The notes: generated from the sequence alone by a model not told the origin. A stretch of 64,000 nucleotides of DNA from Nitrososphaeria archaeon (GCA_963752255.1 CAVVXT010000019.1:32001-96000), one strand, 5' to 3'; shown: positions 7,437 through 43,227, counted from the stretch's first letter. A program made the numbers and translations.

Positions 7437-7445
7437 TAATACCAG

Positions 7446-9928: not shown

Positions 9929-10031
9929 GCTTACTTTTTAGTATGTGTTGAACATTGTTGCAGTTGTTGAACGATTTTGAAATTGTTTCACAAACCTATA
10001 TCACAATAGATGGTATACATGGCTATCTTGT

Positions 10032-10593
10032 GTTTCAAATCCTTATAGGTATTCTACAAACTTTTATATATAATTGATTTGGTTCATCCCTTTGTTTATT
10101 TCAAATCCTTATAGGTATTCTACGAACATAACATTGATTTCATCTGGGATGTGCAGAATGCTGCGTTTCAAATCCTTATAGGTATTCTACGAACATAACA
10201 TTGATTTCATCTGGGATGTGCAGAATGCTGCGTTTCAAATCCTTATAGGTATTCTACAAACACGCAACCGACTATATGGCAGAGCAAGCCTACCAGTTGT
10301 TTCAAATCCTTATAGGTATTCTACAAACGCATACGTTGTGATTCCTGCGATGGGATTTTTCTTGTTTCAAATCCTTTTAGGTATTCTACAAACGAGACAC
10401 CGAACTCTTTTAACGCTACACCTACGATCATGTTTCAAATCCTTTTAGGTATTCTACAAACCTTTACACCATACAATACATTTACTGTAACACCATAGTT
10501 TCAAATCCTTATAGGTATTCTACAAACAGTAACCACTTACGCTACTGTATGGGAAAAGGAAGTGTTTCAAATCCTTCTAGGTATTCTAAAAAC
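10032..10593 (-). CRISPR. CRISPR array 1: 9 repeats (30 bp, GTTTGTAGAATACCTATAAGGATTTGAAAC on minus), 8 spacers of 35-38 bp
   Basis: Repeats start at 10032, 10098, 10165, 10232, 10299, 10364, 10432, 10498, 10564; GAAAC 3' end and leader on the right give minus orientation. Confidence 0.98.
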
Positions 10594-10745
10594 TGGCGTA
10601 AATTATGTTCATTTCCACATTTTAAACCTTTTTCCAAGCCAATAATCCAAATGTCCAATGTCGACCCATAAAAGCGTGATACATGAGCGTAGACCGACGG
10701 AACGTTTTTATTATCCTAACAGGCCATAAAGAAACTATAATGCGA
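10594..10745 (-). promoter_or_regulatory. CRISPR leader of array 1, also the divergent upstream region of cas6
   Basis: AT-rich with a TTTAAAA box; exact inverted copy at 17470-17621. Confidence 0.9.
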
Positions 10746-11465
10746 TTGTGCTTGGCTATGCAAAATGATCGGGGACCTACAGTTCTTCCGATCAGCTATA
10801 ACCATCTTGTCCAAGCAGCAATCTACAGCAGCATATCCCTTGAACTTTCGACCTTTCTACATAACAAAGGATATATTTATGAAAAAAGGTCATTTAAGCT
10901 CTTTACTTTCTCTAGGCTTCTTGGAAAGTACGAGATAATGCAAAATAAGATATGCTTCAAAGATAATATAGATGTCTATGTTTCTTCTCCTATTGACAGA
11001 TTTATTAAAGAAATTGCAAACATTTTACTAAAAAGAGGCCATTTAGTTTTAGGCAAACAAAAGCTTAAGATTACAAACATATCTTTCCCACTAGAGCCGA
11101 AAATAGGTACTAATGTAAGAATCAAAACACTTTCGCCAATAACAGTCTACAGCACTATGCTTTCACCAACAGGAGATAAGAAGACCTACTATTATTCACC
11201 TTTTGAAGCTGAATTTTCTAAGCTCGTCGACGCAAACGCCAAAAAAAAGTTTTATATAACAAAAAAGAGAAACATTAAATCACGTTTAAAAATGCAGCCA
11301 CTAAGAGTCAAAGAATCAATTATAATCTACAAAGAAATAGTTGTAAAAGGCTGGAGTGGATTATTCCAGTTGAGTGGGCCTAAATCTCTTATTAAAATTG
11401 TATATGAAACTGGGCTTGGAAGCAAAAACCCTCAAGGTTTCGGAATGTTTGAGGTGTTAGCATAA
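10740..11465 (+). CDS. cas6: Cas6 endoribonuclease
   Basis: YNHLVQAAIY, FKLFTFSRL, TLSPI, GLGSKNPQGFG; likely start MRLCL at 10740. Confidence 0.96.
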   Translation: MRLCLAMQNDRGPTVLPISYNHLVQAAIYSSISLELSTFLHNKGYIYEKRSFKLFTFSRLLGKYEIMQNKICFKDNIDVYVSSPIDRFIKEIANILLKRGHLVLGKQKLKITNISFPLEPKIGTNVRIKTLSPITVYSTMLSPTGDKKTYYYSPFEAEFSKLVDANAKKKFYITKKRNIKSRLKMQPLRVKESIIIYKEIVVKGWSGLFQLSGPKSLIKIVYETGLGSKNPQGFGMFEVLA

Positions 11466-11466
11466 A

Positions 11467-13314
11467 TTGTTGGACTCAGTTGCAAAGATAGGAGAGAGTT
11501 TGCTTGAGGAAGACTCTGAATATTTTCTGAAGAGTCTAGTTATTTATAGGAGAAAAGATGTTGATAGCACTCTACTGCATATAATAATGGATTTGGATAG
11601 AGGCGTTATAGAAAAAGAAGAATTGAAATTGACTATGGAGAGGTACGAGCATTATTTGTGGATAGGTAATACCTTCAGAGCCTCACTTGAACCTATATTG
11701 AGGCTTACCAGCGATAGATTGGAATACTTATTTAGTGAACGCAATGGAGTTGACGGAATAGTTAAGACTATTGAAGGATTCCCAGCTCAGTATCGCTCAG
11801 ACTCTGTCAATAGGCTTTACGAATACTTAAAACAAATCAGAACAATTTTTGGTAATCTGCAGAATCTATCCAAAGAATACGAAGAGGAAATGAAGAAAGA
11901 AGATGTTAAGCCTGCCCTCTATTCTATAGCTGTACGCAAAAATGGAGAAGTGTTCGATTTATCTAAAGAGAAAGGATACAAAGAGTTCTTGGAAATAGTT
12001 TTACTTCAAAAGAATAAACAAGCAAGGAAAGGAACTTGCTATCTATGTGGCTTTGATAAAGTATTGCTTGATCCTTCATTCCGTTTGGGTTCGTTACTCA
12101 AAGTTTACGTTATTGATAAGAAAGGCTTCCTTTCGGGTATTTCGGATAATGAAGAGTCAAAATTACGAACTTTCACTTTATGTTCAAATTGTTTAAAGAA
12201 GCTCTTAACAGGAGATGGTTTTATAGAAACAAACCTTAGAAGTTACATAGGCCGATTTAATCTCTATATAGTACCAAGATCAGCAACAGAGATACGTCTT
12301 TTGAAGAAGTGGGCCGATTACATAAAAGATCGAGTTGGCGCACTTAACTCTTACAATGGCCTTATTGAATTTAACCAAAAATTGAGTGACTATAGCGAGT
12401 TTGTAAATAACGAACCATTGTATTCGTTAACGTTAATCTTTGGTGAAAGGGAGCAAATTTCATCATTTAGACTATACGGCATGATTACAGAGATTCCTAT
12501 CACAAGAATGACTTCATTCACGAGCAGTGTAAGCAAAATAGCCAGAGAAATGAGTCTATTGTTTACTTTGGAGGAAAACGTTTTCAATTGCGGTCTAGCT
12601 GAGATTTATAGAATATTCCCATTAAGAAAAAGTAAAAATGGTCCTGTGAGAGAGTATAAACCGCTTCTCTCACTTTATTCATCATTATTGCAAGATTCTG
12701 AATATTCAAGAAGTGAGTTATTAAAGAGAGCCCTACTGTTTGCAAGGATTAACAAGTTTAAGCTTCATAGTTTGTATGATATAAGACAGGAGAAGAATCT
12801 TGATGTTCAACTTTGCAATGGCATATTAAAGTTTAATATCCTGCTCAAACTATTGGATAAAAGTATGGAAGTGAGTGATGTACAAGCTAATAAAAGTGAA
12901 GACTTGAAATCAGGTAACAAGATTATGAAATACTTCAACTTAATGGGATATAAAGAATGGCAGCAATCCCTATTTTTACTCGGATATCTAGTTGGTGAAA
13001 TTGGTTCACAGCAATACAATAAAGGTGATGAAAAAAAGTCAATCCTGTCAAAAATAGATTTTGATGGAATAAGAAAAGAGAAAGTTGTGATTCTTTCGAA
13101 TCAGATTCTTAAATCACTTCGAGATTATAGAGTTCTGAAATATAATGAAAAAACATATGCTGATATGAAAGAATTATTGGACAGAAATCTAAACAATCTG
13201 TATGACCCCATAATGAATACATTTTACATTCTAAGTGGTTATTCATTTTCCACATTGCAAAGAATAAAAGCCAGTTCTGCTAATATTAACAAGGAGGATA
13301 ATAATGATGAGTGA
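11467..13314 (+). CDS. cas8b: type I-B large subunit Cas8b (Csh1-like)
   Basis: CYLCG...CSNC zinc motif, C-terminal FLLGYLVG...KSIL small-subunit-like region; position between cas6 and cas7. Confidence 0.88.
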   Translation: MLDSVAKIGESLLEEDSEYFLKSLVIYRRKDVDSTLLHIIMDLDRGVIEKEELKLTMERYEHYLWIGNTFRASLEPILRLTSDRLEYLFSERNGVDGIVKTIEGFPAQYRSDSVNRLYEYLKQIRTIFGNLQNLSKEYEEEMKKEDVKPALYSIAVRKNGEVFDLSKEKGYKEFLEIVLLQKNKQARKGTCYLCGFDKVLLDPSFRLGSLLKVYVIDKKGFLSGISDNEESKLRTFTLCSNCLKKLLTGDGFIETNLRSYIGRFNLYIVPRSATEIRLLKKWADYIKDRVGALNSYNGLIEFNQKLSDYSEFVNNEPLYSLTLIFGEREQISSFRLYGMITEIPITRMTSFTSSVSKIAREMSLLFTLEENVFNCGLAEIYRIFPLRKSKNGPVREYKPLLSLYSSLLQDSEYSRSELLKRALLFARINKFKLHSLYDIRQEKNLDVQLCNGILKFNILLKLLDKSMEVSDVQANKSEDLKSGNKIMKYFNLMGYKEWQQSLFLLGYLVGEIGSQQYNKGDEKKSILSKIDFDGIRKEKVVILSNQILKSLRDYRVLKYNEKTYADMKELLDRNLNNLYDPIMNTFYILSGYSFSTLQRIKASSANINKEDNNDE

Positions 13315-14279
13315 TGTGAGCAAGAATAGTGAAATACTTTTACTGTACGAAGCTATTCTATGTAATCCTAACGGTGATCCTGACGAGGAGAATAGACCTC
13401 GCATAGATATAGTAACTAAGAAAAATCTAGTGACAGATGTTAGATTAAAACGCTATTTTAGAGATCATATAATCAACAAATATGGAGAGAAGTATATTTG
13501 GATAACAAAGATTGCTGGTAATAATGTGGATCCTGAAACGAGACTTAATGAATTAATAGGAAAGGAAAAAGATGTCGATGAAGTAAAGTTTGTTACTCAG
13601 AGATGTATAGATGCCCGACTTTTTGGAGCTAGGCATGCCCAAAAAAGCAAGAAAAGGAGTAAAAGGTGAAACTTCACATGTAACAGGACCTGTTCAGTTT
13701 TCATGGGGATATTCGCTTCATCCTGTAGAAACCGTAGAATCTTCTTCAATAACTTCGTTATTTGTGGGTAGAGAAACTGAAGGAAGAGCTTACGGTACAA
13801 TAGGAAAAGACTATAGATTATACTATTCCTTAATCGCTTTTTATGGTTTGGCTAGCGGAAATAGAGGAAAGAAGACTGGCCTTAAGGAAAGAGACCTGGT
13901 TATACTGGACCACTTACTTTGTCCTTCGCTAAAATTAGAAGCAACTACAAGAAGTAAGATAGGAGAAAATCCACTATTATACATGAGAGTTGAATACACA
14001 GAGTCGGATACTTTAATCGGTGATCTGAGACGATTTGTCAAAGTAAGTTACGAAAACGAATCAATTAGATCACTTAAAGATCTGAAAATCGATACAAGTG
14101 ACTTGGCAAGAAGACTGAATGAAAAACAAAGCACAATAAACAAAATATATCTCTGGACTGATGAATCAATTAGAGAAAGCATAATTCCAATTGAAAGTAA
14201 AATGAAAGATCAGATTATTTATGTGCCTTATGCAAAACTTAATCTTCCAGATGACCTCATAATCAAAGAAGAAAAGTAA
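13304..14279 (+). pseudogene. cas7: Cas7 (Csh2-type), frameshift near 13631
   Basis: NPNGDPDEENRPR, VTDVRLKRYFRD, DARLFGA, then TGPVQFSWG and TRSKIG in the next frame. Confidence 0.9.
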
Positions 14280-14292
14280 CTGGCATTCTATT

Positions 14293-15025
14293 ATGATGTC
14301 TTTCAATTTGGAAGGGAAGATGGGGCATTTTCGGAAGTTCTATACTACTGTAACGTCATTAAGTTATGCTTTCCCTCCACGTAATACTATCTGTGGAACT
14401 ATTGCAGCTATTTTGGGCTTAGAAAGAGATTCCTATTACGATTTGCTGTCAAGAGATAGATGTAAAATAGGGATACAGATTTTAGAACCTGTTAAAAAGG
14501 TACTGTTGACAACTAATTATCTGGATACAGATGAGATAAGCTTTAGACGGCTCAGAGGTATCGGAATGAAACCAACTCGAGTCGAGTATCTGTTTTCTGA
14601 TAACGATAGATACCTTAGATACAAAATATATTTTGTTCATGAAGACAACAAGATAATGGACGAACTAAGTAAAAGGGTGAAAAGTCAAAAAATACATTAT
14701 CCAATATCTTTAGGACCTGCGCATTGCCTTGCTCAAATAGCAGATTTTGAGGAAATAGAGCCTAAAGCCTTAGTATTAGGTGATAAAACTCAACTTGGAA
14801 TACTTACAGTTATTCAGCAAGACCAGATAGTGGAAATAGATCCAAAATTAAATGAAGGAAAAAGAATAATAATCGAAGAAAGAGTTCCACCAGACTTTGG
14901 TGTAGGAAGAAAGCCAATATCATCGGCTAAGAACTATTTATATGAAGCTGCCTTGTAGTTCTATAATAGCTTCAGTAAAGGGTGAAACTTACAGAATAGG
15001 AGATAAGTATGGTGTCTTCTTATGA
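14293..15025 (+). CDS. cas5: Cas5 (I-B); ORF ends at 14958 but the natural C-terminus appears to continue in another frame to about 15025
   Basis: GHFRKFYT, SYAFPPRNTICG, YPISLG; shifted frame SSIIASVKGETYRIGDKYGVFL* overlaps the cas3 start. Confidence 0.9.
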
Positions 15026-17424
15026 TTATTTTTCGCACCCCAACTTTCCACTTAAAGAACATCTTAAAGCAGTAGGAAAATTGAGTAGATCTAAGGCTTG
15101 GGAATTAGGAATTAGAAGTGAAAATCTACTTAAGACAATTGAAGTAATTGGTTCATTTCATGATGTTGGAAAATATAGCCTCTATTTTCAAGAATATCTC
15201 TGGAGGTAAGAAATATAATAGGGAATTGACTTCCCATTCACTTTTTTCTGCACTTTTTACTAGTTGGTTTACTGCAGTGTCATTTAATGATTCATCTTTG
15301 ACAGCATTTGCTTTTTATTCTGTATACAAACATCATAGCGATTTAAAGGATAAAGTAGAAGATGTCTTTGATAAAAGCTTTCTAAACAAAATCATCGAAA
15401 ATTATAATTATAAAGAACAGTTTGAATCAATAAGTCGATCTAAAGCAATTGTTTCAACTGAATTAGCTGAATTGCTGAAAGATGGTAACAGTTACGTCAT
15501 CATGGACAGCTTCTTTAAAGAATATGAAGCAGGTTTCCCAATTTTAAAAGATTCAATCGTAAACTTTGTAACAAGAAAGCCTAACTTTCTTAAAGATTAC
15601 TATCAATTGCTATTATTCTTTAGCCTACTTATAGATTCAGACAAAAAAGAAGCGAGCCACTATAAATCGAAGGACAGACTTGAAGTTGATTCCTCTTCAG
15701 TCGACAAGTATCTCAGTACAATGAAAAAAACAGATAGTCTGATTAATAAAATTAGACAAGATATCTATCAATCAGCAAATTCGAAGCTTATTGAATTAGC
15801 TAAGGAAAAAGAACTACCAAAGATCTTGACTATAACTGCACCTACAGGGACTGGCAAGACCTTATTATCATTCTCATTAGCACTTAAGCTTAGAAATTTG
15901 ATAAAAGAGCGTCAAGGTCTAACACCTCGTATAATTTACATTCTACCTTACATTAACATTATAGATCAAACATATGATGTTTTTAATAATGTTCTAGATA
16001 GTGGAGGAAATTTGGAACTACTTCTGAAACACCATCATCTTTTATTTGGTTCCTTAGAACCTAATGAGAACAGATCCTTAGAGGATATCACTCTTCTTGC
16101 AGAATCATGGGATTCAGAAGTGATTGTTACAACCTTTGTACAACTTTTTGAAACCCTATTTGGAACAAAAAACAGAATGTTAAAGAAATTTCATAAATTT
16201 TTTAATTCAATAATCATATTCGACGAAATTCAAACCCTTCCTATTGAATATTGGAAGTTAGTCAAAGAAGCTTTACAAACATTGGTAGAGCAGACAAATT
16301 CTTACATAATATATATGAGTGCTACTAGGCCTATAATTTTTAGTGGGAATGAGCTCATTGATAACTGGCGGAAAAATTTTAGTATGCTGAACAGAGTAAG
16401 GTTTAGATACATATCTAAAAAGTTTAGCGTAGGACAAGCAGTTGAATTTGTCTCCAATGAATGGAACAGAAGCGGTTCTTTATTGGTAGTATTAAATACA
16501 ATTGATTCTTCAATTGAATTTTATAATAGAATTAAGGATCTGCTTAGGAAAGATGGATTAGCTTTTCAAGCTCTCAATAATAAAGACATCAATGAAGATT
16601 ATGATAAAGAAAAGATTATAGTAGGCTATCTATCTACAAACCTTCTTCCTATCCATAGGAAAAAACGAATCGATCAGATCAGAGAGTTATTAAAGAAGGA
16701 TACAAAGTTGATACTTGTTAGTACTCAAGTAGTTGAAGCAGGAGTTGACTTGGACTTCGACATGGCTATAAGAGATATCGGTCCCTTCGATTCGATTGTA
16801 CAAGTTGCTGGAAGATGTAATAGAAATGGGTTAAAAGATAAAGGCAAGTTTTATGTTTTGAACTTAGTCGATGAAAATGGGAAATTATATGCCAATAATA
16901 TATATGAACGATTAGCAGTGAAAGTAAGCAGGCAAATATTCGAAAGTGAAGAAGAGTTCGATGAAAGTACAATATTGAATAAAATTAATGATTATTATTT
17001 GAAGAGCACAGCATTTCTAGGAGAAGAAAGTGACGAATACAGAGAAGCTAAAGAAGCCATAGAACAATTAGACTTTGCTAAACTGAACTCCATCCGTCTT
17101 ATAAAGAATGAACCCAAGTTTAACGCTTTCATAGAATACGATGAAGAGGCATTCAAAATCAAAGAGGAACTTCTCAAGTTAATTGATGAACGGAAAAATC
17201 CAACTGAACAAAAAAATACGACCAAAATGTACGAAATTAATTTGAAGGTTAGGAAAAAGAGAGCAGAACTTGAAAATTACATAATCTCAACATGGAAGAA
17301 CATCGAACATCTTCCCCTAATGCTTGAATTTCCAGATTTAAAATACATTAATACTGACCTTATAAACCAATATTATGATGATGAAGTAGGCTTGAAATTA
17401 AATGAGCCAATGGACATTGAATAA
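15009..17424 (+). pseudogene. cas3: Cas3 HD nuclease-helicase, frameshift near 15200
   Basis: SHP..LKEHL, FHDVGK, HSLFSA, KHH, APTGTGKT, DEIQ, MSAT, STQVVEAGVDLD, QVAGRCNR. Confidence 0.93.
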
Positions 17425-18415: not shown

Positions 18416-19277
18416 CTAACATGCCTCCACGTTTGTTTCACGCCAGTCCTTTCCTAGCTTGAAAGTGAATCTGCTGCTGCAGCTTCTGTCCAATTGCTCG
18501 CTAACTTCATGGGAATATTCTAAAGTTGAAAGCAGTAGTATCACCTGTCTGTGTCTGCTGACTGCCAAAATCATGTCTACAAAACTATCCCTTAATCCAT
18601 CTCCCATTCCGGCTAGAGGCGCATCCATCACAATAGGCACATTAAACGCTGACGCCTGATGTGCGGCCAGCTTAAATGATAGCGTGAGCAGTCGGCGTTC
18701 TCCAGAAGACAAAATTTGGCAATTGTTGTATCTCATGTTATTCGGTTTAGAGGTGGAGTAGTCTTCGTCAGCATTGATGTCGGCGAAGAGTTTTTTGTTC
18801 GAAATCAGGTAAAGCAGTTCTCCCGCTCGAGACATGGTTTCCCGTCTGATCCTGTCCCCTGTGAGCTTCTTTTTCTGCCTCATTACGGTGAGGACGTTCC
18901 CGTAGGATTCTATCTGCTCTGTGCTGGTTGAGTTAAAGTAGCCGGCGTGTCTGTAGACCCTGAACAGGACCTTCCTCGAGAAAAGGAAATATCTGTCCCC
19001 CTCTGTAGCCAATAGTTCTACTACGACCTGCCTGGTCTCCCATGTTGTCTGAGGCTCCAGCGGCGTTGTCGTTCAGGAGAGGTGATTGCTGCTGATCTGA
19101 ATGTTGAGACTCGTCGCCGTAGAGGCACCATCTGATTGCGTTGAGCAGGTTCGTCTTCCCAACGCCTCCTCCTCCGACGAAGATGTGGAGGTCGTTTCTG
19201 CCAGGCTTCCTGCCGAGAGGGATTTCCGTGTCCCTGTACTGCATAAAGTTTTTGAGTGTAATCCTCTCAAACCTTAA
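18416..19277 (-). pseudogene. short SMC/Rad50/DndD-like ABC ATPase lacking a coiled coil; frameshift near 19028
   Basis: ITLKNFMQY, GGGGVGKTNLLNAIRWCLYG, LSSGERRL, PIVMDAP. Confidence 0.75.
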
Positions 19278-25252: not shown

Positions 25253-26449
25253 TTGATAGGGGCTCAAAGTAAGATCTTTAAGGATAGGGAGAAACTGTCT
25301 CCCCGTTATGTACCGTCAATCTTGCCACATCGTGAGAAACAGATTGAAAGCCTTTACAATTCCTTCAGAGAAGCCCTGGCTGATCCTTCTAGAGCGCTAT
25401 TGAAGATTATCCAGATAATTGGACCTGCTGGCTCCGGGAAGACAAGCAGCGTTCTGAGGTTTGGTCAGAGGTTTGAACAGGACGCTGCAAGACTGAAGCG
25501 CGATATTAGACATGTCTACGTTAACCTGAAACTTCAGGGCGGAAGCAGAGTTGTACTCTACAGGTACCTTTTGGAAGCTGGGGCTCCTGAGGTATACTCC
25601 TCCAGTCTGAGTGCGGAAGAAATGTTGCGAGTGATGCTCCGGCAACTTCGAGAGAGGAAAAGATACCTACTGATTTCACTTGATGAAATTGACTATTTCA
25701 TAAGGAGCACAAAGGAAACTGGCGTGGTTTACGATCTAACCCGTCTCAACGAAATTGAGTTGGGGAAACCCTGTAACGTGTTAGGTGTCATCTTCACTGC
25801 AAGAAGCAAGGACTTCCACGAAAGGCTTGATCGAGCTGAACTCAGCACACTCGGTAGGATCCCGATAGAATTCTCCTCCTACACTTCCATTGAAATCGTT
25901 GACATCTTAGCTGACAGAGTCAAGGAGGCTTTTCAGCAGAGAGTTGTATCGGATGAAGTTCTAGAATATGTCGCAGACTTGACGGTAAGCTCTCCTGTGA
26001 ACGGTGACCTAAGATATGCCCTTGACCTACTTCTATATTCAGGTAACCTAGCAGAGAACCAGGGAGCTGAACAGATTCTGCCAGACCATGTCCGCCGAGT
26101 GCATGGGGAAACCCATCCTTCGATTACAGAAGAAGATATTCTGAACCTCCCCAAAAAGGAGCACCTTATAGCACTTCTGGCTGTGGTCAAATCGCTCAGA
26201 AACACGAGGAAGACCTACACTTCGATGAGAGATATACGTCTCAACTGTGGGATGATATGTGAAGACATGCACCTTAGGCCAACTGAAGACCTTGACGACT
26301 ACCTTCAGGACCTACACGACAGGCGGATAATCGAAATACGTTCTCTCAAAGAGATAGGCATAAGCGGAGTGCCAACAGAAAACCTTGGACTCTTCTTGGA
26401 TAGTTTGTTCAAACGGTTGGAGACTGGGCTGAATGTACGTCAATCGTAA
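25253..26449 (+). CDS. cdc6: Orc1/Cdc6-family AAA+ ATPase with wHTH
   Basis: LSPRYVP..LPHRE, GPAGSGKT, LDEID, GDLRYALDLL; TTG start 25253 after GGTGG, TTTAAAAA at 25211. Confidence 0.92.
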   Translation: MIGAQSKIFKDREKLSPRYVPSILPHREKQIESLYNSFREALADPSRALLKIIQIIGPAGSGKTSSVLRFGQRFEQDAARLKRDIRHVYVNLKLQGGSRVVLYRYLLEAGAPEVYSSSLSAEEMLRVMLRQLRERKRYLLISLDEIDYFIRSTKETGVVYDLTRLNEIELGKPCNVLGVIFTARSKDFHERLDRAELSTLGRIPIEFSSYTSIEIVDILADRVKEAFQQRVVSDEVLEYVADLTVSSPVNGDLRYALDLLLYSGNLAENQGAEQILPDHVRRVHGETHPSITEEDILNLPKKEHLIALLAVVKSLRNTRKTYTSMRDIRLNCGMICEDMHLRPTEDLDDYLQDLHDRRIIEIRSLKEIGISGVPTENLGLFLDSLFKRLETGLNVRQS

Positions 26450-26717
26450 AAGAGAAATCGAGGAGGGCCTTGGAACAATAGGCAGGATAAAGGTTATGGC
26501 AGAGCTGGCCAAGAAACCCAACGAATCCCTCACAAAATATTCTCTCCTAAAGGGTACAGGGCTAAAGCGAAGCGATCTGAACGAGAACCTCAGGCACCTT
26601 ACCAACATCAACTGGGTAAAGGAGCTTAGGGCCATACACCTCAGGTATCAGATCAACCTGGACAACCCCGTAGTCCGGGTTCTATACAATTTCTTCAAGG
26701 AGTCGGAGTACATTTAG
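26433..26717 (+). CDS. small winged-helix protein coupled to cdc6
   Basis: GRIKVMAELAK...LTKYSLLKGTGLKRSDL; overlaps cdc6 stop. Confidence 0.75.
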   Translation: MYVNRKREIEEGLGTIGRIKVMAELAKKPNESLTKYSLLKGTGLKRSDLNENLRHLTNINWVKELRAIHLRYQINLDNPVVRVLYNFFKESEYI

Positions 26718-26730
26718 GAAGACGGTGTTA

Positions 26731-26808
26731 ACCCCACCCTCTCCCCTAAGGTCCTTCATCCAATTAATATCGTCCTCTAGGCTATTTGTCGTGGAGGTCA
26801 GAAAGATG
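26731..26808 (+). promoter_or_regulatory. copy 1 of duplicated promoter/RBS/ATG block
   Basis: CTCTCCCCTAAGGTCCTTCATCCAAT(T/A)AATATCGTCC...TATTTGT.GT.GAGGT.AGAAAGATG shared with 27845-27925. Confidence 0.8.
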
Positions 26809-26863
26809 GCAATAGACATGAATGATGATACAGGTATCACTCCCATCCTCTAGAAATTAGAAA

Positions 26864-27295
26864 ATGGTGAAAGTGAATGGGGAAATAGATGTAGGCCGTT
26901 TAGCAGACAGTTTATCCGATAGGATGAGTAGCAGGATTTCTAAAGTCATTTCTAAAGTTATGAGGGAGGAGCTCAATTCACGTCTCCCGCCATCATATGA
27001 GATGAAAAAGTTCACGGATGAAATTCAAATACTGATAAAAGCTGCCTCTTATGGAAGAAAGAGGGTGTGGAAATCCATCCTCGTAGTTGGGACGATGGTT
27101 ATGACGAAGGATCTTACGGTAAAAGATGTCGTAGAAACATTAAGGTGTGATAGGACAACAGCCTACAGGATTTTGAAGAGGTTGCTCGAATTTGGTTTCG
27201 TCGAAAAGGATGGACGATTTTATAGATTGAATAGCAAAGTCTGTCCAGTGCTATACTCCATGACTAGAAGAACGCTTTTTGTGGTCAGGGAGTAG
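26864..27295 (+). CDS. HTH transcription regulator (C-terminal wHTH)
   Basis: LTVKDVVETLRCDRTTAYRILKRLLEFGFVEKDGRFYRL. Confidence 0.8.
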   Translation: MVKVNGEIDVGRLADSLSDRMSSRISKVISKVMREELNSRLPPSYEMKKFTDEIQILIKAASYGRKRVWKSILVVGTMVMTKDLTVKDVVETLRCDRTTAYRILKRLLEFGFVEKDGRFYRLNSKVCPVLYSMTRRTLFVVRE

Positions 27296-27366
27296 TGATG
27301 TTGCATGTACTATGCTACAAAAGTTTTTCCAACGTTGCATGTATGTAATATTATATTGCGACTTGG

Positions 27367-27552
27367 ATGAATCAAACGATTTCCAAAAATCGGCCAAATA
27401 AAAGGAAAATGCTAAGTCTACTTGCGATTCTGTTTGCATTTTTACAGGTTTTTCTTCTACTTCCTAATCTCCCAGATATTTTTACAATTCTATTTGTCAT
27501 CATTCTTGTTATTCCCATTATCTCTGTTGTATTGGGGAAAGGTAGGTTCTAA
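27367..27552 (+). CDS. small membrane protein
   Basis: 61 aa, two hydrophobic helices. Confidence 0.45.
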   Translation: MNQTISKNRPNKRKMLSLLAILFAFLQVFLLLPNLPDIFTILFVIILVIPIISVVLGKGRF

Positions 27553-27571
27553 ATAATGGAGGTTAAGGATT

Positions 27572-27754
27572 TTGACTGAAAAAGATAATTGGACTAAAAG
27601 GGGGGTAGAAGTTGATATATCAGTGGCGTTAGCTTATTGGTTCTACGAAATTTTATACAAAATGCAGAACATTACTGAAGCCCAAAGATACTTTCTTTTT
27701 ACACTTATTATATTCGTTGGCTTCTTCCTGTACTTTCAGTGGTTCAAGGAATAA
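27572..27754 (+). CDS. small membrane protein
   Basis: 60 aa, GGAGG RBS upstream, hydrophobic C-terminus. Confidence 0.5.
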   Translation: MTEKDNWTKRGVEVDISVALAYWFYEILYKMQNITEAQRYFLFTLIIFVGFFLYFQWFKE

Positions 27755-27844
27755 TCCGAAAACTATACTTTAGCTTGTAATAGACATATCTACGGAGAGG
27801 GATTATTTGTGTATTATATGACATTCCAGAAAAGCTGTATTAAA

Positions 27845-27925
27845 CCCACCCTCCCCTCTCCCCTAAGGTCCTTCATCCAATAAATATCGTCCCATAGAAT
27901 ATTTGTTGTTGAGGTTAGAAAGATG
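27845..27925 (+). promoter_or_regulatory. radA promoter (copy 2 of duplicated block)
   Basis: C-rich upstream element, ATAAATA TATA-like box, GAGGT RBS. Confidence 0.8.
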
Positions 27926-28915
27926 TCTGTAACCGTATTTGATATGGAGCTCCACGACTTAGAGGGTATTGGGCCGTCAACTGAAAAGAAGCTTAAGGAC
28001 GCTGGGATAGAATCTGTTCTCGATCTCGCAGTCGCCCTACCAGATGAAGTGGCTGATAAGATCGGTGGTGCGAAGGAGAACGCGAGTGCCATGATATTCG
28101 TCGCCCAAAAGGCGTTGATGGAAAGCGGCTTAATCGATAAGGAGTTCGTTCCAGCAATAGAAAATTATGAGAAGAGAAAGTCCATGATTAGGTGTACGAC
28201 AGGTTCGAAGAACCTTGACAGCCTGCTCATAGGGGGTATTGAGACTCAGGCTATCACAGAGTTTTGGGGTGACTTTGGCTCCGGCAAGAGCCAGCTCTGT
28301 CACACCCTCTGCGTGACAGCACAACTTCCAATAGAGAAGGGTGGATTCGGGGGAAATGTGATCTTCATAGATACTGAAAGCACCTTCCGCCCAGAGAGGA
28401 TTTACCAGATAGCTGAAGCAAGAGGGTTAGACCCAATCCAAGTTCTCAAGAACGTTATAATCTGCAGGGTCTACAACAGCAGCCACCTTGAGCTGGCGGT
28501 CAAAAGGCTCGGAAAATACATCGAACAGTACAACGTCAAGCTCGTCATTGTTGATAGTATAATATCCTTGCACAGGGCTGAGTTCGTGGGAAGAGGGACG
28601 CTGGCTGAGAGACAGCAGAAGCTGAACGGTCTCGTGCACCGTCTTCTCAGGATGGCTGAAATCTATAACGTGGCGGTAGCAGTTACTAATCAGGTTCAGG
28701 CACAGCCGGACACGTTCTTCGGGGACCCTACAAAGCCTGCTGGAGGGCACATTTTAGGGCATGCCTGCACGTACAGGGTCTACTTGAAGAAGGCTGGGCA
28801 AGAGAGGATCGCAACGATTATCGACAGTCCTTATCATCCCTATTCAGAAAACCGCTTTGTAATATCGGAGAAGGGAGTGGAGGATCCGGAGCCAAAGAAG
28901 GGCAGAGAAGGTTAG
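27923..28915 (+). CDS. radA: RadA recombinase
   Basis: N-terminal HhH EGIGP, GDFGSGKSQ, IDTESTFRPERI, GRGTLAERQQKL, TNQV, GGHILGH. Confidence 0.96.
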   Translation: MSVTVFDMELHDLEGIGPSTEKKLKDAGIESVLDLAVALPDEVADKIGGAKENASAMIFVAQKALMESGLIDKEFVPAIENYEKRKSMIRCTTGSKNLDSLLIGGIETQAITEFWGDFGSGKSQLCHTLCVTAQLPIEKGGFGGNVIFIDTESTFRPERIYQIAEARGLDPIQVLKNVIICRVYNSSHLELAVKRLGKYIEQYNVKLVIVDSIISLHRAEFVGRGTLAERQQKLNGLVHRLLRMAEIYNVAVAVTNQVQAQPDTFFGDPTKPAGGHILGHACTYRVYLKKAGQERIATIIDSPYHPYSENRFVISEKGVEDPEPKKGREG

Positions 28916-28940
28916 ATACCTTAAGGGGAGAGAGGTCGAA

Positions 28941-30092
28941 GTGAGCCTTCTCCTTGGAGGCGACCACAGGATGGGCGACAGACCTACGCCAATTATTCAG
29001 ACCGCTCTGGAGGACTTTGATGAGCAGAGGAAGAGGCAGAAGCTGACGACAGGCTCCGGTGACCTAGATAGCCTGATAGGTGGAATTGAAGGAGGATTCT
29101 TCTACCTGTTCTACGGTGAGCCAGAGATACTTGATCTCCTCATACATCGTCTTCTTGTAAACTGTGTTATGCCAGCCGAAAAAGGTGGCCTTGATGCAAA
29201 AGCAGTCTACTTTAACAACACCGACTACTACGTCGGCAAGACTCTAATCGATCCATCGAAACTCGGCATGCTAGCGAAGCATGTGGGTATAGATCCTTCC
29301 CTTGTCTTCAAAAATGTAGAGGTAGCGGCAGCATTTAATGAAGAAAGACAATGGTTTGCGTCAAAAGAGGTTGTAGATTTGATAAGAGAAAAAAAGGAAA
29401 TTAAGCTTCTCGCAGTCCACAACATAACACGCTTCCTTGTAAACTCGAAGAAGCCTAAGGAGTCCAAGGAGGTTCTGAAGAAGGTTGTAGGCAACCTTTG
29501 GAGGGCGGCATCTGAAAACCATGTAGCCTTCGTTATGACCGTTGATGCCATAGATACAGGTAAAGTATTGGCTCCCAAGCCGTTAGGTGGCATCTACATA
29601 AGGCAAGCAGCTTCAATCTTAGTTCATTTCAGAAAGTTCTGCGATGGGCCAATATCGTCCTATAAGGTAACGCTTGTGAAGCATCCATATAAGAGGGCTC
29701 CAGAGTCCATAGTGCTATATGTAAGCCAAGCTGGCTCTTTAGACCTAATGACAGGAAGGAACGTTCCATCCTTCCAGCAACTTTATGGAGAGTATTTGGA
29801 CCGCCTTAAAAGCTTCTTCCAGAACGATCTCCTAGATCTTGGGCACAGGTCTGCGTTTGATGTCCTGCTTAAGGAAGCTTGGAATATGGAACAGAAGGCA
29901 TTAAGCAACCTAAAGGAATTTACACTTTTGGATGGGCTGAACCTTACAGCATCAGTGGACACTCGTGCACTTATCGAGTCCGTTCAAAGACGCTTCCTCA
30001 CCATAGACGATGAAACTAAAAGGCTCGCTCAAGACATTGAATCAATAAGGAACAGGATCAATGTAACCACGAGGGATGACAAACATGGGTAG
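28941..30092 (+). CDS. inactive RadA/RecA-like paralog fused to a C-terminal arCOG07300-like domain
   Basis: LTTGSGDLDSLIGGIE start; Walker A replaced by YGEPEILD; KPLGG; C-term GRNVPSF...HRSAFDVLLKEAW homologous to the next ORF. Confidence 0.8.
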   Translation: MSLLLGGDHRMGDRPTPIIQTALEDFDEQRKRQKLTTGSGDLDSLIGGIEGGFFYLFYGEPEILDLLIHRLLVNCVMPAEKGGLDAKAVYFNNTDYYVGKTLIDPSKLGMLAKHVGIDPSLVFKNVEVAAAFNEERQWFASKEVVDLIREKKEIKLLAVHNITRFLVNSKKPKESKEVLKKVVGNLWRAASENHVAFVMTVDAIDTGKVLAPKPLGGIYIRQAASILVHFRKFCDGPISSYKVTLVKHPYKRAPESIVLYVSQAGSLDLMTGRNVPSFQQLYGEYLDRLKSFFQNDLLDLGHRSAFDVLLKEAWNMEQKALSNLKEFTLLDGLNLTASVDTRALIESVQRRFLTIDDETKRLAQDIESIRNRINVTTRDDKHG

Positions 30093-30438
30093 AATAACGC
30101 CTTCCGCGCGCACTCTTTATGAAGAAACGGTTAACGAGCTCAAATCGCAGTATCGGGGTAGTTTAGTCGATCAAGGCCACAGGCAGGCATTCGACCTCCT
30201 ACTCAAACTGGCATGGGAGACCGAGCAAGCGGCAATGGCTAACTCTAATATTCCTGTTGTGATCGATCGGCTCAATTTGACATCAAATCTGCATAACAGA
30301 AAGCTCATCGAAGCTCTTGCAAAGAGGGTGGAGGAGAAGGAGCAGGTCATCAAAGAGATTAAAGAGGAACTTTCCCAACTGAAAGCTCAACTGCACTACT
30401 CTACCACAACAGATGGAAGTGCTCCAAATGGTACCTGA
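30085..30438 (+). CDS. small PolB2-associated helical protein (arCOG07300-like)
   Basis: MGRITPSAR...HRQAFDLLLKLAW; located directly before the PolB2 gene. Confidence 0.75.
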   Translation: MGRITPSARTLYEETVNELKSQYRGSLVDQGHRQAFDLLLKLAWETEQAAMANSNIPVVIDRLNLTSNLHNRKLIEALAKRVEEKEQVIKEIKEELSQLKAQLHYSTTTDGSAPNGT

Positions 30439-32641
30439 GGTCGGCTGGGTCCTTGACGTCTACACAGAAGACAACTTAGCTTTTATCTGGATTCGAACAG
30501 AAGACAATAAGGTTATCAGGCTCCAAGACCATTACCATCCAAGCCTTTACATTCTTCCTAAGACATATGAAGATGGTGAACAGCTTCTATCCGCCCTACA
30601 GAATCAGATGGACATAAGAAGAACGACTTGGGTAGAAAAATACACGAACCTAAGGGAAGGGGAAAAGAAAAGGCTCATCCATGTTGTCGTCGAAGACGCC
30701 TTAGCCTACAGGCAGATAGTAGGGGCCCTTAAAAGACAGGAGCAAGTGATGGAGCTCTTCAACTTAGATCTTCTACATCTGCAACAGTATTTGTTTACAA
30801 GGCTTCAGATTGAACCGACCAGCAAGGTCGAATTCCTGCACGGCACAAATAGGTGCTTGTCAGAAATCAGAAAGGTTGATGACAGTAAAGAGATAGAGCC
30901 TCCACCTTTTACGACACTGCACTTTGACATAAACATCGGAGCAGCGTCTCTAACTCCAAACCCTCAAACAGATCCAATAACTTCGATAGAAACAAGATTT
31001 GAAGATAAAGAAACTCTTATCGAAGGAAGTGAAGAGGAGGTTCTAAAGGGATTCGAATCGATTGTGAAGGAGAAGGACCCTGATTTCATAGTTACACAAA
31101 ACTGCGATAAATTCGCTTTCCCATACCTGCAGACACGGGCAAGATCGCTGAACCTTAAAATGCAACTCGGAAGAGAAGATGTGGATTCCGATAGTTTTAA
31201 CAGGTCTCTTCCATATTGTGCACGAGGAAGAGTGGCTATCGGCTACGAATCCTATGGCATATTGCACGATAAATGGGGAATAGCTGGCCTTGTCGAACGT
31301 TCACGATTCGGGTTTCTTCCACCTGGTTTAGCAGCAAGGTGGTCCGCTAACAGGGTCAACGACAGCCGCGTCTGTTATGAACTACTCCAAAAGGATTATG
31401 TGATTCCGAAGAACACCGGCTACTATGAATACATTCGGCCCATGAAGGAGATCTTTGAACGCGATAAGGGTGGTATGATCATCCCTCCCAAAATAGGTGA
31501 GGTGCACGCCAACGTAGCAGAATTGGACTATGAATCGGAGTACCCAAACCTGATCGTCAAAGAATGTATAAGTTTCGAAACCGTAGGTCCAAAAGGACTG
31601 GATAAAAGGGATGACGCGATACTCCCATTAGTGACAGGGAAGGTTCTGGAGCGAAGATTATATTTTAAGAGGCTCCGTAAGAGCTTTCCCAAACAAAGCA
31701 AGGAATGGCTGTGGTGTGAGCAGCGTCAAAATGCTTTGAAGATGGTTTTGGTGTGCATTTATGGCACTTCAGGGTGTTGTTGGAACAGGTTCGGCAATGT
31801 ACTGGCCTTCGAGGAAATAAACAGAAAATCTAGGCAGGTAATGATTAGGACAAAAGACTATGTTCAGAGCCAGGGCTTTGAACTGATATATGCGGACACA
31901 GATTCTGTCTTCGTCAAAAAGGATGATGCGACAAAAGAAGATTACGAACAGCTAGCCGTACAACTAAGTAGGCTCATGGGTCTCCCGATTTCCTTGGATC
32001 ATCACTACAGGTTCCTTCTTCTACTACCGTTGGAGGCAGACCCTTCTCTGAATATGGAGGCGCAGAAACACTACTTTGGCGTCCTTTATGATGGAGAGCT
32101 TATCGCTAGAGGAATAGAGTTAAGACGACATGACACGCCGTCCTTCATAAAGGAGTTCCAAGCCAAGCTCATTCAAACCCTATTCGATTGTACGACTGTT
32201 GAAGAAGTATGCAACGTTGGATATGAGCGCGCCATGCTTCTCATCACAAGAACCATAGACAAAATTATGGGTGGAGATATATCATTTGAAGAATTGGTGG
32301 TCTCTAAGACGCTTAGGAAAACGGTGGATAAATATAGAAGTGTGCTTCCACATGTGGCTGCGGCCATCCAACTCGCAAGCAAAGGCAAACAGGTAAAGTC
32401 TGGCGAAGACATTAACTTCATCTACATGGATTCAGACCACCACAACCCTCTCTGTCGCGTCATACCATTAGAGCTAGCAAGCTCCCACGTAAACATAGAC
32501 AAAGAAAAGTATCGTGACATGTTATTGGATGCGGCTGAGACGGTTCTTTCAACCTTCGGTTTTTCAAGAGAAGCCTATGGCATCTATAAATCAAGGTCTT
32601 GGTTAGGAGAACTAAGAGAAGAAATAAGAAAAAAGGTCTAA
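30413..32641 (+). CDS. polB2: family B DNA polymerase, PolB2/Dpo2 group; exonuclease motifs degenerate
   Basis: DYESEYP (A), QNALKMVLVCIYG (B), YADTDS (C), KHYFG, RGIELRRHD; ExoI FDIN, ExoII NCDKFAF. Confidence 0.9.
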   Translation: MEVLQMVPEVGWVLDVYTEDNLAFIWIRTEDNKVIRLQDHYHPSLYILPKTYEDGEQLLSALQNQMDIRRTTWVEKYTNLREGEKKRLIHVVVEDALAYRQIVGALKRQEQVMELFNLDLLHLQQYLFTRLQIEPTSKVEFLHGTNRCLSEIRKVDDSKEIEPPPFTTLHFDINIGAASLTPNPQTDPITSIETRFEDKETLIEGSEEEVLKGFESIVKEKDPDFIVTQNCDKFAFPYLQTRARSLNLKMQLGREDVDSDSFNRSLPYCARGRVAIGYESYGILHDKWGIAGLVERSRFGFLPPGLAARWSANRVNDSRVCYELLQKDYVIPKNTGYYEYIRPMKEIFERDKGGMIIPPKIGEVHANVAELDYESEYPNLIVKECISFETVGPKGLDKRDDAILPLVTGKVLERRLYFKRLRKSFPKQSKEWLWCEQRQNALKMVLVCIYGTSGCCWNRFGNVLAFEEINRKSRQVMIRTKDYVQSQGFELIYADTDSVFVKKDDATKEDYEQLAVQLSRLMGLPISLDHHYRFLLLLPLEADPSLNMEAQKHYFGVLYDGELIARGIELRRHDTPSFIKEFQAKLIQTLFDCTTVEEVCNVGYERAMLLITRTIDKIMGGDISFEELVVSKTLRKTVDKYRSVLPHVAAAIQLASKGKQVKSGEDINFIYMDSDHHNPLCRVIPLELASSHVNIDKEKYRDMLLDAAETVLSTFGFSREAYGIYKSRSWLGELREEIRKKV

Positions 32642-41202: not shown

Positions 41203-42258
41203 TCATTCAGAAAATACACGTCTTTTTGCCCAGATAGCCACATTCACCAAGCCTATCATGACAGGCACTTCTATCAAGGGCCCTATCACTGTCGCAAAAG
41301 CTTCTTGCGAGGATAAACCAAAAACTGCGACTGCCACAGCAATAGCTAATTCGAAATTATTACTTGCTGCAGTGAAGGCAAGCGAAGTAGTCCTTTTGTA
41401 GTTTAGCTTCAAGTAGTAACCCAAGATGAATGATATTAGGAACATTGGAATGAAATAGGCTATCAATGGTATCGCTATCCTTACGACATCTAGTGGTAGT
41501 GTCACGATATATTCCCCCTTAAGTGAGAACATGACCACTATCGTGAAAAGAAGTGCGAACAAAGAAGTCGGGCTCAGCTTCGGCATCAGTTTATGGTCGT
41601 ACCATTCCCTTCCCTTCGTTTTCAGAAAGTAGTACCTTGCTAACATACCGCCGAAGAAAGGTATCCCCAAGTATATCGCTACAGACTCCGCTACTCCTAT
41701 AAAAGAGATGTTGACGACTGTCCCTTGTCCTCCAATCCAAGAACTTGCGAGAGTTATGTAGAAGTACGCTAAAACCGAGTAGAACAGTATCTGGAAGATG
41801 GAGTTCAAGGCTACAAGTATCGCAGCCCACTCGCTGTCCCCTCCAGCCAGGTCGTTCCAGACGATGACCATGGCGATGCACCTTGCCAAACCTACGAGAA
41901 TTATTCCATTTCTGAAAGCCGGATAATCTGCCAAAAATATCCATGCCAATGAGAACATTAAAAGAGGTCCAATTAGCCAATTTAAAATCAGCGAAGTAGA
42001 AAGCATCTTCTTCGAGCCCTTTGCTGTAACAACCTTCCCCAATTCCTCGTATCTGACCTTTGCTAGGGGAGGAAACATCATCCAAATTAGCCCAACTGCT
42101 ATAGGAATTGAAGTAGTTCCAACACTTACTGAACCTATTATTTCAGAGATCCTGGGGAAGACATATCCTAGGCCAACACCTAGCATCATGGCCAAGAATA
42201 TCCAGAGCGTGAGAAATCGGCTGAGAAAGGATAGCTTCTTTTTTTCATCTTTTTCCAA
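41203..42258 (-). CDS. acr3: ACR3 arsenite efflux transporter
   Basis: [34 protein letters not shown]. Confidence 0.97.
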
Positions 42259-42421
42259 AAAAATTCACCTTATGGAGAACCACATAAAAGACCATACAGT
42301 AGCCTAAAGAATACGCTACCTGCCCAAGCAATAACCATGAAGGTGGTGCACAAGGGGGTTCAGGATCAAAAACTTCAACAGTTATGCTTTTCACATTATG
42401 CATTATATTCAGACCGTAACT

Positions 42422-42445
42422 ATCACAATATTTAAATATTGTGAT
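42422..42445. promoter_or_regulatory. perfect 24-bp palindrome ATCACAATATTTAAATATTGTGAT; ArsR operator overlapping the TATA box
   Basis: Between divergent acr3 and arsR; centred on TTTAAA. Confidence 0.75.
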
Positions 42446-42460
42446 TAATTTACTATATGT

Positions 42461-42784
42461 ATGCCAATGCAGAAGGATGGTTTGGACAGATTTAGGGCTA
42501 AAATATTTTATGCCCTTTCGGATCCTATCAGGCTCAAGATTATTGAGTATTTGAGAAATGGAGAGAAATGCGTGTGCGAGATAATCCCATATATTAAAAT
42601 GCCTCAGCCTATAGTCTCACGCCACCTGAAGATTCTAAAAGACTCTGGGCTGCTGAAGGATAGAAGGGATGGAACTCGGAGATTTTATTCGATTACAGAC
42701 AGGAGGGTGTTCGATATAATTGATACTGTGTCACCTGACGTGGCCGAAAGTCTCTCGGGACATGCTATTGAGCAGATAATCTAG
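42461..42784 (+). CDS. arsR: ArsR/SmtB repressor
   Basis: ALSDPIRLKI, EKCVCEI, VSRHLKIL. Confidence 0.93.
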   Translation: MPMQKDGLDRFRAKIFYALSDPIRLKIIEYLRNGEKCVCEIIPYIKMPQPIVSRHLKILKDSGLLKDRRDGTRRFYSITDRRVFDIIDTVSPDVAESLSGHAIEQII

Positions 42785-42798
42785 AAGAGTCAATCTTT

Positions 42799-43227
42799 AT
42801 GCCACCTGTTAAAAGAAAGGTCCTCTTCCTTTGTGTTCATAACTCTGCTAGGTCTCAGATGGCGGAAGGTCTACTGAACCATCTATTTGGGGATAGATAT
42901 GTGGCCTATAGTGCGGGTCTTGCTCCAACAAAAGTTAATCCATACGCCATTAAAGTCATGGCAGAAATCGGGATAGACATCTTAGATAACAAAGCTAAAT
43001 CCTTCATTGAGTTCATTGGAAAAGGCATCGATGTAGTGGTTACAGTATGTGACGAATCAAAAGAGGTTTGCCCTTATTTTCCAGGAGCTAAAAGATTTAT
43101 TCATTGGAATTTTCAGGATCCATCGGAAGCTGTCGGCACTGAAGAAGAAATTCTAAGGGTATTTCGAAATGTCCGAGACGCATTAAGAGACCTGATTACA
43201 AAAGCTGTTGAAAAAAGTGAACTATAA
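42799..43227 (+). CDS. arsC: thioredoxin-coupled arsenate reductase (LMW-PTP fold)
   Basis: CVHNSARSQMAE, TVCD...CPYFP, HWNFQDP. Confidence 0.93.
   Translation: MPPVKRKVLFLCVHNSARSQMAEGLLNHLFGDRYVAYSAGLAPTKVNPYAIKVMAEIGIDILDNKAKSFIEFIGKGIDVVVTVCDESKEVCPYFPGAKRFIHWNFQDPSEAVGTEEEILRVFRNVRDALRDLITKAVEKSEL

Follow-up and report, generated by a model that had tools for sequence, protein, structure and literature searches.

A probable basal-type PolB2 mutasome operon led by a second RadA gene in a Nitrososphaeria archaeon

The DNA analyzed here is a 64,000-nt stretch of the genome of a Nitrososphaeria archaeon (GCA_963752255.1, CAVVXT010000019.1:32001-96000), hereafter the window, and the locus of interest is a module that encodes a family B DNA polymerase (PolB2), two RadA-like proteins and an Orc1/Cdc6 paralogue. 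A scan for open reading frames (ORFs) found nine of them between nucleotides 25253 and 32641, all on the + strand and without internal stops (Table 1). The genes RadA, iRadA::PPB2b fusion, PPB2a and PolB2 are arrayed in this order behind a promoter composed of a C-rich box (C-box) and a TATA-like element. This promoter is duplicated before a gene for a TrmB-type helix-turn-helix (HTH) protein, and further upstream lie the Orc1/Cdc6 gene and a translationally coupled gene for an ArsR-like winged-helix (wHTH) protein. All the ORFs named in a first-pass annotation, made from the sequence alone, are present on the + strand and uninterrupted, but two small ORFs that follow the HTH gene had been omitted from its list. 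The tight coupling that it described for the whole module is found in two blocks, Cdc6/wHTH (an overlap of 17 nt) and RadA-iRadA-PPB2-PolB2 (gaps of +25, −8 and −26 nt), but the joins between the other ORFs of the module are looser, with gaps of 146, 71, 19 and 168 nt. The G+C content of the module is 0.44-0.48 as compared to 0.39-0.40 in the flanks.

Table 1. Genes and promoter repeats of the module (positions counted from the first nucleotide of the window).
Feature	Position	Strand	Characteristics
Orc1/Cdc6 paralogue	25253..26449	+	398 aa with TTG 25253 as start; open frame reaches back to 25049; intact Walker A (GPAGSGKT)
Winged-helix protein, ArsR/SmtB fold	26433..26717	+	94 aa; no Pfam match; fold from structure model
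Promoter repeat, copy 1	26716..26808	+	C-box 26732-26747, TATA-like TTAATAT, Shine-Dalgarno GGAGGT, ATG of a 15-codon ORF; before HTH gene
TrmB/IclR-type HTH protein	26864..27295	+	143 aa; PF01978 TrmB, 32 bits (cut-off 25.6)
Two small hydrophobic ORFs (61 and 60 aa)	27367-27552, 27572-27754	+	No family match; gene status unsure
Promoter repeat, copy 2	27828..27925	+	C-box 27845-27864, GTCC, TATA-like 27880-27887, Shine-Dalgarno GAGGT, RadA start codon
Full-length RadA paralogue	27923..28915	+	330 aa; HhH N-domain, FVPA polymerization motif, Walker A GSGKS, Walker B
iRadA::PPB2 fusion	28941..30092	+	383 aa; IQTA at residues 19-22, RadA core without Walker A, PPB2-like domain at residues 270-383
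Free PPB2 (arCOG07300 type)	30085..30438	+	120 aa; likely ATG 30085; earlier ATG at 30076
PolB2	30413..32641	+	742 aa; alternative start 30428; motifs A, B and C intact, exonuclease carboxylates lost

In a family scan the polymerase matched DNA_pol_B (PF00136, 111 bits) and exo1 (PF03104, 48 bits). Its alignment to related enzymes bears out what the first-pass annotation had stated: polymerase motifs A (DYESEYP), B (K...YG) and C (YADTDS) are kept, and the exonuclease motifs have decayed, with ExoI reading FDIN (E to N) and ExoII NCDKFAF (D to A). ExoIII is not alignable, and the exonuclease positions vary freely among the PolB2 relatives. The best NCBIfam models, NF004416 and NF004418 (214 and 178 bits, both below cut-off), are also those best matched by the IVD-type PolB2s of relatives; the replicative PolB of the same genome matches NF004417 with 1033 bits. 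The motif C region is almost identical to that of a DTD-type PolB2 included in a data file of PMC11791011. From the published models of the PolB2 family we infer that the enzyme is active as a polymerase and defective in proofreading. The genome encodes three PolBs, the replicative one (845 aa), an enzyme of 623 aa that lacks the exonuclease, and the PolB2 of the window. The 623-aa paralogue (L006 859-2730, G000 contig C12) has motifs A and C intact and no exonuclease domain at all; it is nearest to the replicative model NF004417 (339 bits, below cut-off) and no iRadA gene was found in its 4-kb locus. One relative has a PolB2 of 898 aa (L096 8992-11688) whose match to the PolB2 of the window is broken by about 170 residues located between the motif A and B regions, possibly a mini-intein.

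The product of the gene that follows radA matches Rad51 with 55 bits over residues 34-232, and its alignment to RadA begins at RadA residue 78. The absence of Walker A from this second RecA-fold protein, noted in the first-pass annotation, was confirmed by this alignment, where FYGE-PEILDLL is placed opposite FWGDFGSGKSQL of RadA. The protein, named iRadA (inactive RadA), consists of a RadA core devoid of the ATPase motifs and of the N-terminal helical domain. Residues 272-380 of the fusion share 37% identity with the 120-aa protein (E 2e-23), and therefore the two arCOG07300-like copies that had been proposed are indeed there, one fused to iRadA and one free. The free copy, PPB2, most likely starts with MGRITPSAR, which includes R3 and R9 as in the motif described in PMC11791011, and its reading frame overlaps the stop codon of iRadA (TAG 30090-30092); the fused copy starts with MTGRNVPSF, and Arg9 is absent. 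When 12 free and fused PPB2 domains were aligned, G2, R3 and P6 were invariant and R9 nearly so. The structure model of free PPB2 (pLDDT 73) has three helices (H8-24, H30-53, H59-110) and a free N-terminal arm, and a Foldseek comparison of this model to the PDB gave no match at E <=0.001, the best E being 5. The possibility that iRadA arose from the linked RadA by tandem duplication was considered and set aside: there was no score preference for the linked over the housekeeping RadA in 11 genomes, and the iRadA of the window gave 72 bits against the former and 76 bits against the latter. The genome also includes a third RadA-like gene (L003 1318-2229, − strand, G000 contig C19; 303 aa, Rad51 62 bits, no Walker A), located about 11 kb beyond the housekeeping radA and not adjoining any PolB gene. 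In another genome a 721-aa ORF (L091 3028-5193, − strand) extends across iRadA-PPB2 and, in a different frame, overlaps the ORF of RadA, which could represent a radA/iRadA fusion or a frameshift in that genome.

A trio of genes coding for an inactive RadA, an arCOG07300 protein and PolB2, often with an arORC2 gene nearby, was reported in 2014 (Makarova, Krupovic and Koonin, PMC4104785), and in 2025 it was modeled as a "PolB2 mutasome" and likened to Pol V (Timinskas, Timinskas and Venclovas, PMC11791011). In the main text of the latter the complex is a heteropentamer of PolB2, iRadA and three PPB2 subunits; iRadA-PPB2 fusions are described, as are PPB2 duplications in which just one copy keeps the N-terminal MGRT arm, DxD-intact PolB2s of TACK archaea placed close to the root of the PolB2 tree, and an over-representation of orc1/cdc6 among the neighbors (364 of 1823 operons). 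The module in the window has the gene order iRadA-PPB2-PolB2, a Walker-A-less RadA homolog without HhH domain, a small three-helix protein with an MGRxT arm, an iRadA-PPB2 fusion together with a PPB2 duplication, an exonuclease-dead PolB that keeps DxD as in the basal TACK members, and orc1/cdc6 in the vicinity. The term mutasome, the orc1/cdc6 neighborhood and the analogy to Pol V in the first-pass annotation were thus right but, as the texts of these two papers indicate, already published. The module differs from the operon described there in the full-length, Walker-A-positive RadA paralogue found at its head, in the coexistence of fused and free PPB2, in a C-box promoter common to other genes, and in an FxxA-like motif at the N-terminus of iRadA for which docking on RadA was modeled. 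Rad51/RadA is not among the 20 neighbor domains in Table S1 of PMC11791011, and neither "Rad51" nor "PF08423" occurs in its data file 1. The literature searched, which comprised texts without figures and few subscription journals, described no active RadA in a PolB2 operon and no C-box; figures, data file 2 of PMC11791011 and the supplement of PMC4104785 could show RadA neighbors. Within that literature the core of the module belongs to the published system, and no description was found of the form headed by RadA, of a C-box promoter shared with other genes or of the arm of iRadA. Our preferred reading, which we consider fairly probable, is that the region is a basal-type PolB2 mutasome operon with DxD intact, extended by a leading RadA and a C-box promoter, whose products would form a translesion complex that docks through iRadA on a RadA filament.

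The RadA encoded at the head of the operon scored above the cut-offs of both NCBIfam equivalogs (NF003301, 406.6 bits, cut-off 259; TIGR02236, 385 bits, cut-off 361); its HHH_5 match, 26.8 bits, is marginally below the cut-off of 27. Walker A is located at residues 118-122. The catalytic and DNA-binding columns are invariant in 25 RadA relatives, with F75, A78, G121, K122 and D211 invariant or almost so in their alignment, and on this basis the linked RadA is probably an active recombinase. It is not the only RadA of the organism: the genome (2.1 Mb, 94.7% complete) holds another full RadA, 51% identical, located 2 kb past the end of the window (G000 C19:97979-98692) and adjoining an Asp/Asn-tRNA-ligase-like gene.

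The conservation of the linkage was examined in two surveys. A scan of species-representative genomes gave 9 loci, and RadA precedes iRadA in all five that have sufficient upstream DNA. The second survey covered 401 genomes of the same class, from which 40 loci were fetched, for a total of 45 loci mapped, 29 of them of the module type. The linkage of radA and polB2 proposed in the first-pass annotation is conserved in 19 of these 29, where a Walker-A-positive RadA gene lies directly 5′ of iRadA; nine operons have none and one locus is cut by the contig end. A linked RadA is also found in one of 16 loci with a more distant, IVD-type PolB2. The spacing between radA and iRadA is <=25 nt in the window and in most linked loci, across at least seven family codes. 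Another full RadA is encoded elsewhere in 14 of the 15 genomes with a linked RadA (the fifteenth is 73% complete), and exactly one RadA is present in each of the seven genomes that have a RadA-less operon and a RadA match.

A RadA tree was built with 84 rows, leaving out the 189-aa fragment L030 and L023, a same-genus copy of L001. All other RadAs of the class except five, together with 29 from the rest of the phylum, form a 58-row housekeeping group (SH-aLRT 84). The 21 linked RadAs fall outside it, in several clades, along with five stand-alone copies from one family that have no PolB2 nearby. The housekeeping copy of the genome (L001) groups with the single-copy RadAs of related genomes, and the window copy is outside that group. 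A duplication within the family of the window was rejected with p-AU 2e-6 (34-row subset, LG+G4), in a test of a group that was defined after inspection of the first tree. As judged from these trees, the linked RadA is a second, old copy. Two observations on RadA genes of relatives are added here. In a family-level relative (L014, 76% identical) a 573-aa ORF (5811-7532), with no match in a Pfam scan, is located between radA and iRadA and abuts both, possibly as a further operon member. The housekeeping RadA ORFs of three other relatives (L148, L149, L150) are 590-848 aa long and the family match covers part of each, which suggests inteins.

The two promoter repeats of the module share 87% identity over 78 nt; copy 1 precedes the HTH gene and copy 2 ends at the RadA start codon. 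In each, a C-rich box is followed after about 16 nt by a TATA-like element and then by a Shine-Dalgarno site. A genome-wide search for the 98-nt repeat found only these two copies and no third one. The 1.1 kb between them, made up of the HTH gene and the two small ORFs, is shared with the same-genus relative alone, which suggests that the promoter was duplicated as this segment was inserted. Defined strictly as a 12-mer of only C and T with at least nine C, the C-box is found upstream of 14 of 21 linked radA genes, mostly 55-80 nt before the start codon and across at least six family codes, relatives not being independent. It also precedes four of seven stand-alone RadA genes of the linked type, iRadA in two of ten RadA-less operons, and the first gene of two distant PolB2 operons; PolB2 operons preceded by the box include those of loci L106, L110, L098 and L102. 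The background is 58 boxes in 708,318 nt of strand from the same loci, and 31 boxes in the whole genome of the window.

The complete genome of a relative (G188) was searched for CCCCCTCCCCC allowing one mismatch, which gave 25 sites; the pattern reads the same backwards, so that the built-in control of that search is void. Seven of the 25 have the arrangement box-N4-GTG[CT]-N8-TATA. They are found before RadA-b, which is the second RadA of that genome, before a zinc-finger-iRadA gene heading a PolB2 operon, and before a radical-SAM gene (of the PA0069/Rv2578c kind, below cut-off), three small zinc-ribbon ORFs and an uncharacterized 330-aa gene. A helicase-like gene has the GTCC variant, as does the window. 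When the genome of the window was scanned with a relaxed pattern of box plus TATA, 11 sites were obtained, and only three of them are promoter-like, the two of the module and one other. The last of these is located before a gene for a 108-aa double zinc-ribbon protein (G000 contig C7:89500-89975, − strand), where CCCTCCCCTCTCC, identical to 13 bases of the module box, and a TATA-like element are found. This gene may share the regulon of the module; zinc-ribbon ORFs follow the box in G188 too. A search for its homologs near PolB2 operons gave none that was convincing (best E 0.012). From its distribution we read the C-box as the putative control site of a small repair-type regulon. The set of genes behind the box in G188, with helicase-like and radical-SAM genes and no Y-family polymerase, would also suit recombination-coupled synthesis, in which D-loops formed by the linked RadA would offer an invading 3′ end for extension by PolB2 and its partners, with little mutagenic role, as in template switching or break-induced repair, the operon then being a gap or break repair unit. 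The apparently complete recombinase (HhH, FxxA, Walker A/B and invariant DNA-binding arginines) heading 19 of 29 loci and the resemblance of the DxD-intact PolB2 to a competent polymerase point the same way; we consider this unlikely as the main role of the operon.

The reading of the locus as an extended mutasome operon places iRadA on the RadA filament, and two kinds of evidence bear on this step. In nearly all of 27 iRadAs an [FMIL]-x-x-[AS] motif in the N-terminus aligns to the FxxA of RadA; in the window it is IQTA, and A22 is almost invariant. Models of the linked RadA in complex with iRadA(1-270) gave ipSAE values of 0.68, 0.68 and 0.65, the best of three controls being 0.00, and the runs share at least 70% of contacts with partner pLDDT of at least 79. 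In the calibration, 116 of 157 solved complexes passed the threshold, as did two of 215 mismatched pairs, figures that are approximate when own alignments are used. The modeled interface is formed by iRadA residues 15-23, 25-26 and 29, and by residues 130, 148, 153, 155-162, 172, 175-184, 188, 191-192 and 199 of the RadA ATPase core. The model supports a predicted binding of iRadA to RadA. Sections 3.1-3.3 and the discussion of PMC11791011 mention neither the N-terminal motif of iRadA nor a test of the iRadA-RadA pair, and that paper describes an oligomerization-like motif on PolB2 that binds iRadA.

These results have to be weighed against another possibility, that the linkage has no mechanistic meaning and that an independent second recombinase, sharing a damage-type promoter, was joined to the operon in some lineages by co-regulation alone. 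Linked-type RadAs do occur unlinked in Nitrososphaeraceae-like genomes and in a second class, with the same box in four of seven cases, and the nine operons without RadA and the independence of the iRadA N-terminal motif from linkage fit it as well. The short radA-iRadA spacing kept across families and a RadA-iRadA complex model that scores above its controls speak against it, and we regard it as improbable.

Upstream of the operon, the Orc1/Cdc6 paralogue matches TIGR02928 with 202 bits (cut-off 181.3) and Cdc6_lid with 74.5 bits; its winged helix, 17.6 bits, is below the cut-off of 25.1. It is 29% identical to the main Cdc6 of the genome, whose gene adjoins that of the PolD small subunit. 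The first-pass annotation had raised an Orc1-2-like identity for it and counted it as a linked member of the module. The linkage holds for 11 of the 29 related loci but not for the rest, including the family-level relative L014. The Orc1-2 type was not supported: the protein is nearer to Orc1-1-type solved structures (1fnn 124 bits, 2v1u 110 bits, 2qby_A 104 bits) than to the ORC2 of Aeropyrum, 1w5s (46 bits), which we take to be the Orc1-2 equivalent. The 94-aa ORF that follows, modeled by AlphaFold with pLDDT 93.1, has as its top Foldseek matches in the PDB the ArsR/SmtB winged-helix repressors SmtB and CzrA (TM 0.72-0.77), and follows Cdc6 in nine of 29 related loci. The 143-aa HTH protein has a homolog only in the same-genus relative (L013) among the 45 loci mapped, and the two small ORFs are likewise kept only there, at 85-87% identity. 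The Cdc6 paralogue and the wHTH protein are candidate regulators of the C-box.

The mechanism that we favor for the extended mutasome operon is as follows. PolB2 would form a complex with iRadA and a PPB2 trimer, as in the published models, here probably with one fused and two free PPB2 subunits, and the free copy would supply the MGRxT arm. Following DNA damage, the complex would extend primers past lesions, as those models also propose. The co-transcribed RadA paralogue, acting as an active recombinase, would coat single-stranded DNA at the gap, and the hydrophobic-x-x-Ala motif at the N-terminus of iRadA would bring the complex to the end of the RadA filament by fitting the pocket of the RadA core that normally takes the FxxA of the next protomer. 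The working likeness would be to a Pol V activated by RecA. The C-box would act as the control site of a small regulon of the repair type, with the Cdc6 paralogue and the wHTH protein as candidate regulators. In a broader and tentative proposal, which we hold to be rather doubtful as a whole, non-ammonia-oxidizing and soil Nitrososphaeria would have an SOS-like damage regulon marked by C-box-GT[GC]C-TATA, with a dedicated RadA and a PolB2 mutasome loaded at the filament end via the iRadA arm at its core and Cdc6/wHTH as its switch, as an archaeal counterpart of the activation of Pol V by the RecA filament.

Several observations weigh against the extended mutasome reading. The branch that separates linked from housekeeping RadAs is not strong (support 84, and 94 in the subset), and the linked RadAs are not resolved as a single clade and form a basal polytomy. 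Nine related operons lack the linked RadA, and RadAs of this type also occur alone. The strict C-box is absent from seven of 21 linked radA genes and present near two of 54 housekeeping ones, both of another family; in the genome of the window its use as a marker is limited to the two promoters of the module and perhaps that of one zinc-ribbon gene. Because RadA/Rad51 filaments have already been solved, the pass of the complex model may reflect likeness to those filaments, and the model cannot separate linked from housekeeping RadA. The hydrophobic-x-x-Ala motif is kept in the iRadAs of the nine RadA-less operons as well, and is therefore not specific to the linked form and may serve for docking on any RadA. 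PolB2 had been modeled with an active RadA before with a poor score, according to the text of PMC11791011, the pair there being PolB2-RadA and not iRadA-RadA. Finally, the PolB2 gene of the same-genus relative L013 (96% identical) is in three pieces (9001-11256), interrupted by a shift close to codon 45 and by a TAG, which means that the organism can do without the system or that the assembly contains an error.

The first-pass annotation also described the module as a portable cassette, which was not substantiated, since no integrase or tRNA gene, capsid or conjugation genes, or flanking repeats were found within the window. A search for the empty site with the ThuA flank protein gave no match in five family genomes, so the state of the site is not readable there. 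Besides its own genome, four of nine family genomes have a PolB match (E <=1e-30), a patchy distribution, and the module of L014 has different neighbors, lying among thermosome, NadA and other cell genes. This patchy presence and the changed neighbors fit gain and loss of the module and do not demonstrate mobility. They would also be expected of the replication unit of an integrated plasmid or virus, with Cdc6 as initiator, PolB as replicase and RadA serving recombination-dependent replication; the grouping of these three genes within 7.4 kb and the G+C content of the module, higher than in its flanks, agree with such an origin. We find it hardly credible, given the lack of mobility genes and repeats in the window, a PolB devoid of terminal-protein-type features, the cell genes on both sides of the L014 module, and the match of the trio to a chromosomal operon that the text of PMC11791011 records in >1,800 genomes.

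The bacterial ImuA-ImuB-DnaE2 system unites an inactive RecA-like protein and an error-prone polymerase in one damage-controlled cassette, and we know of no active recombinase gene in it. Unlike the PolB2 of the window, the DnaE2 polymerase is of the unrelated family C, and the bacterial cassette has no counterpart of PPB2. In Sulfolobus, the repair genes of the Orc1-2 regulon have a short promoter box in common. The window differs in a Cdc6 that scores higher against Orc1-1-type structures and in the box, a putative site that is C-rich and carries GT[GC]C ahead of the TATA box. The likeness to this damage regulon lies in an Orc1/Cdc6 paralogue, a candidate regulator, that adjoins damage-response genes (PMC11791011, main text). 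To the E. coli Pol V mutasome, UmuD′2C-RecA-ATP, the resemblance is in outline, with an error-prone polymerase, a small-subunit oligomer and a RecA-family protein (PMC11791011, main text), and it would extend to damage control; the window additionally encodes a predicted active-type recombinase. The polymerase, on the other hand, belongs to family B instead of Y, a dead paralogue serves as the resident RecA-family subunit, there is no LexA, and any role of an active filament in the window would be by analogy.

Outside Sulfolobales, little is settled about the way in which archaea perceive DNA damage and direct error-prone synthesis, and knowledge of the PolB2 complex comes so far from models and from genetic work in a single genus. 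An active-type recombinase in the same operon under a shared box raises the questions of whether a RadA filament recruits or activates PolB2 and of what binds the box. A further question is whether Nitrososphaeria, the class to which abundant ammonia oxidizers of soil belong, have a defined damage regulon. If the links are purely regulatory, the locus would still be a clean example of operon growth by co-regulation.

Outside the module, the window includes a type I CRISPR-Cas set (cas6, cas8b-like TM1802, cas7, cas5 and cas3) at 10683-17424. Flanking genes are broken, as the first-pass annotation reported: cas7 is split into two overlapping ORFs (13304-13669 and 13611-14279), pointing to a frameshift, and a gene for an AAA_23 (SMC/Rad50-like) ATPase appears broken into two ORF fragments (18416-19244, − strand). 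On the other side, adjoining genes for an SBF-family transporter, an ArsR-type regulator and a low-molecular-weight phosphatase (41203-43227) resemble an arsenic-resistance cluster.

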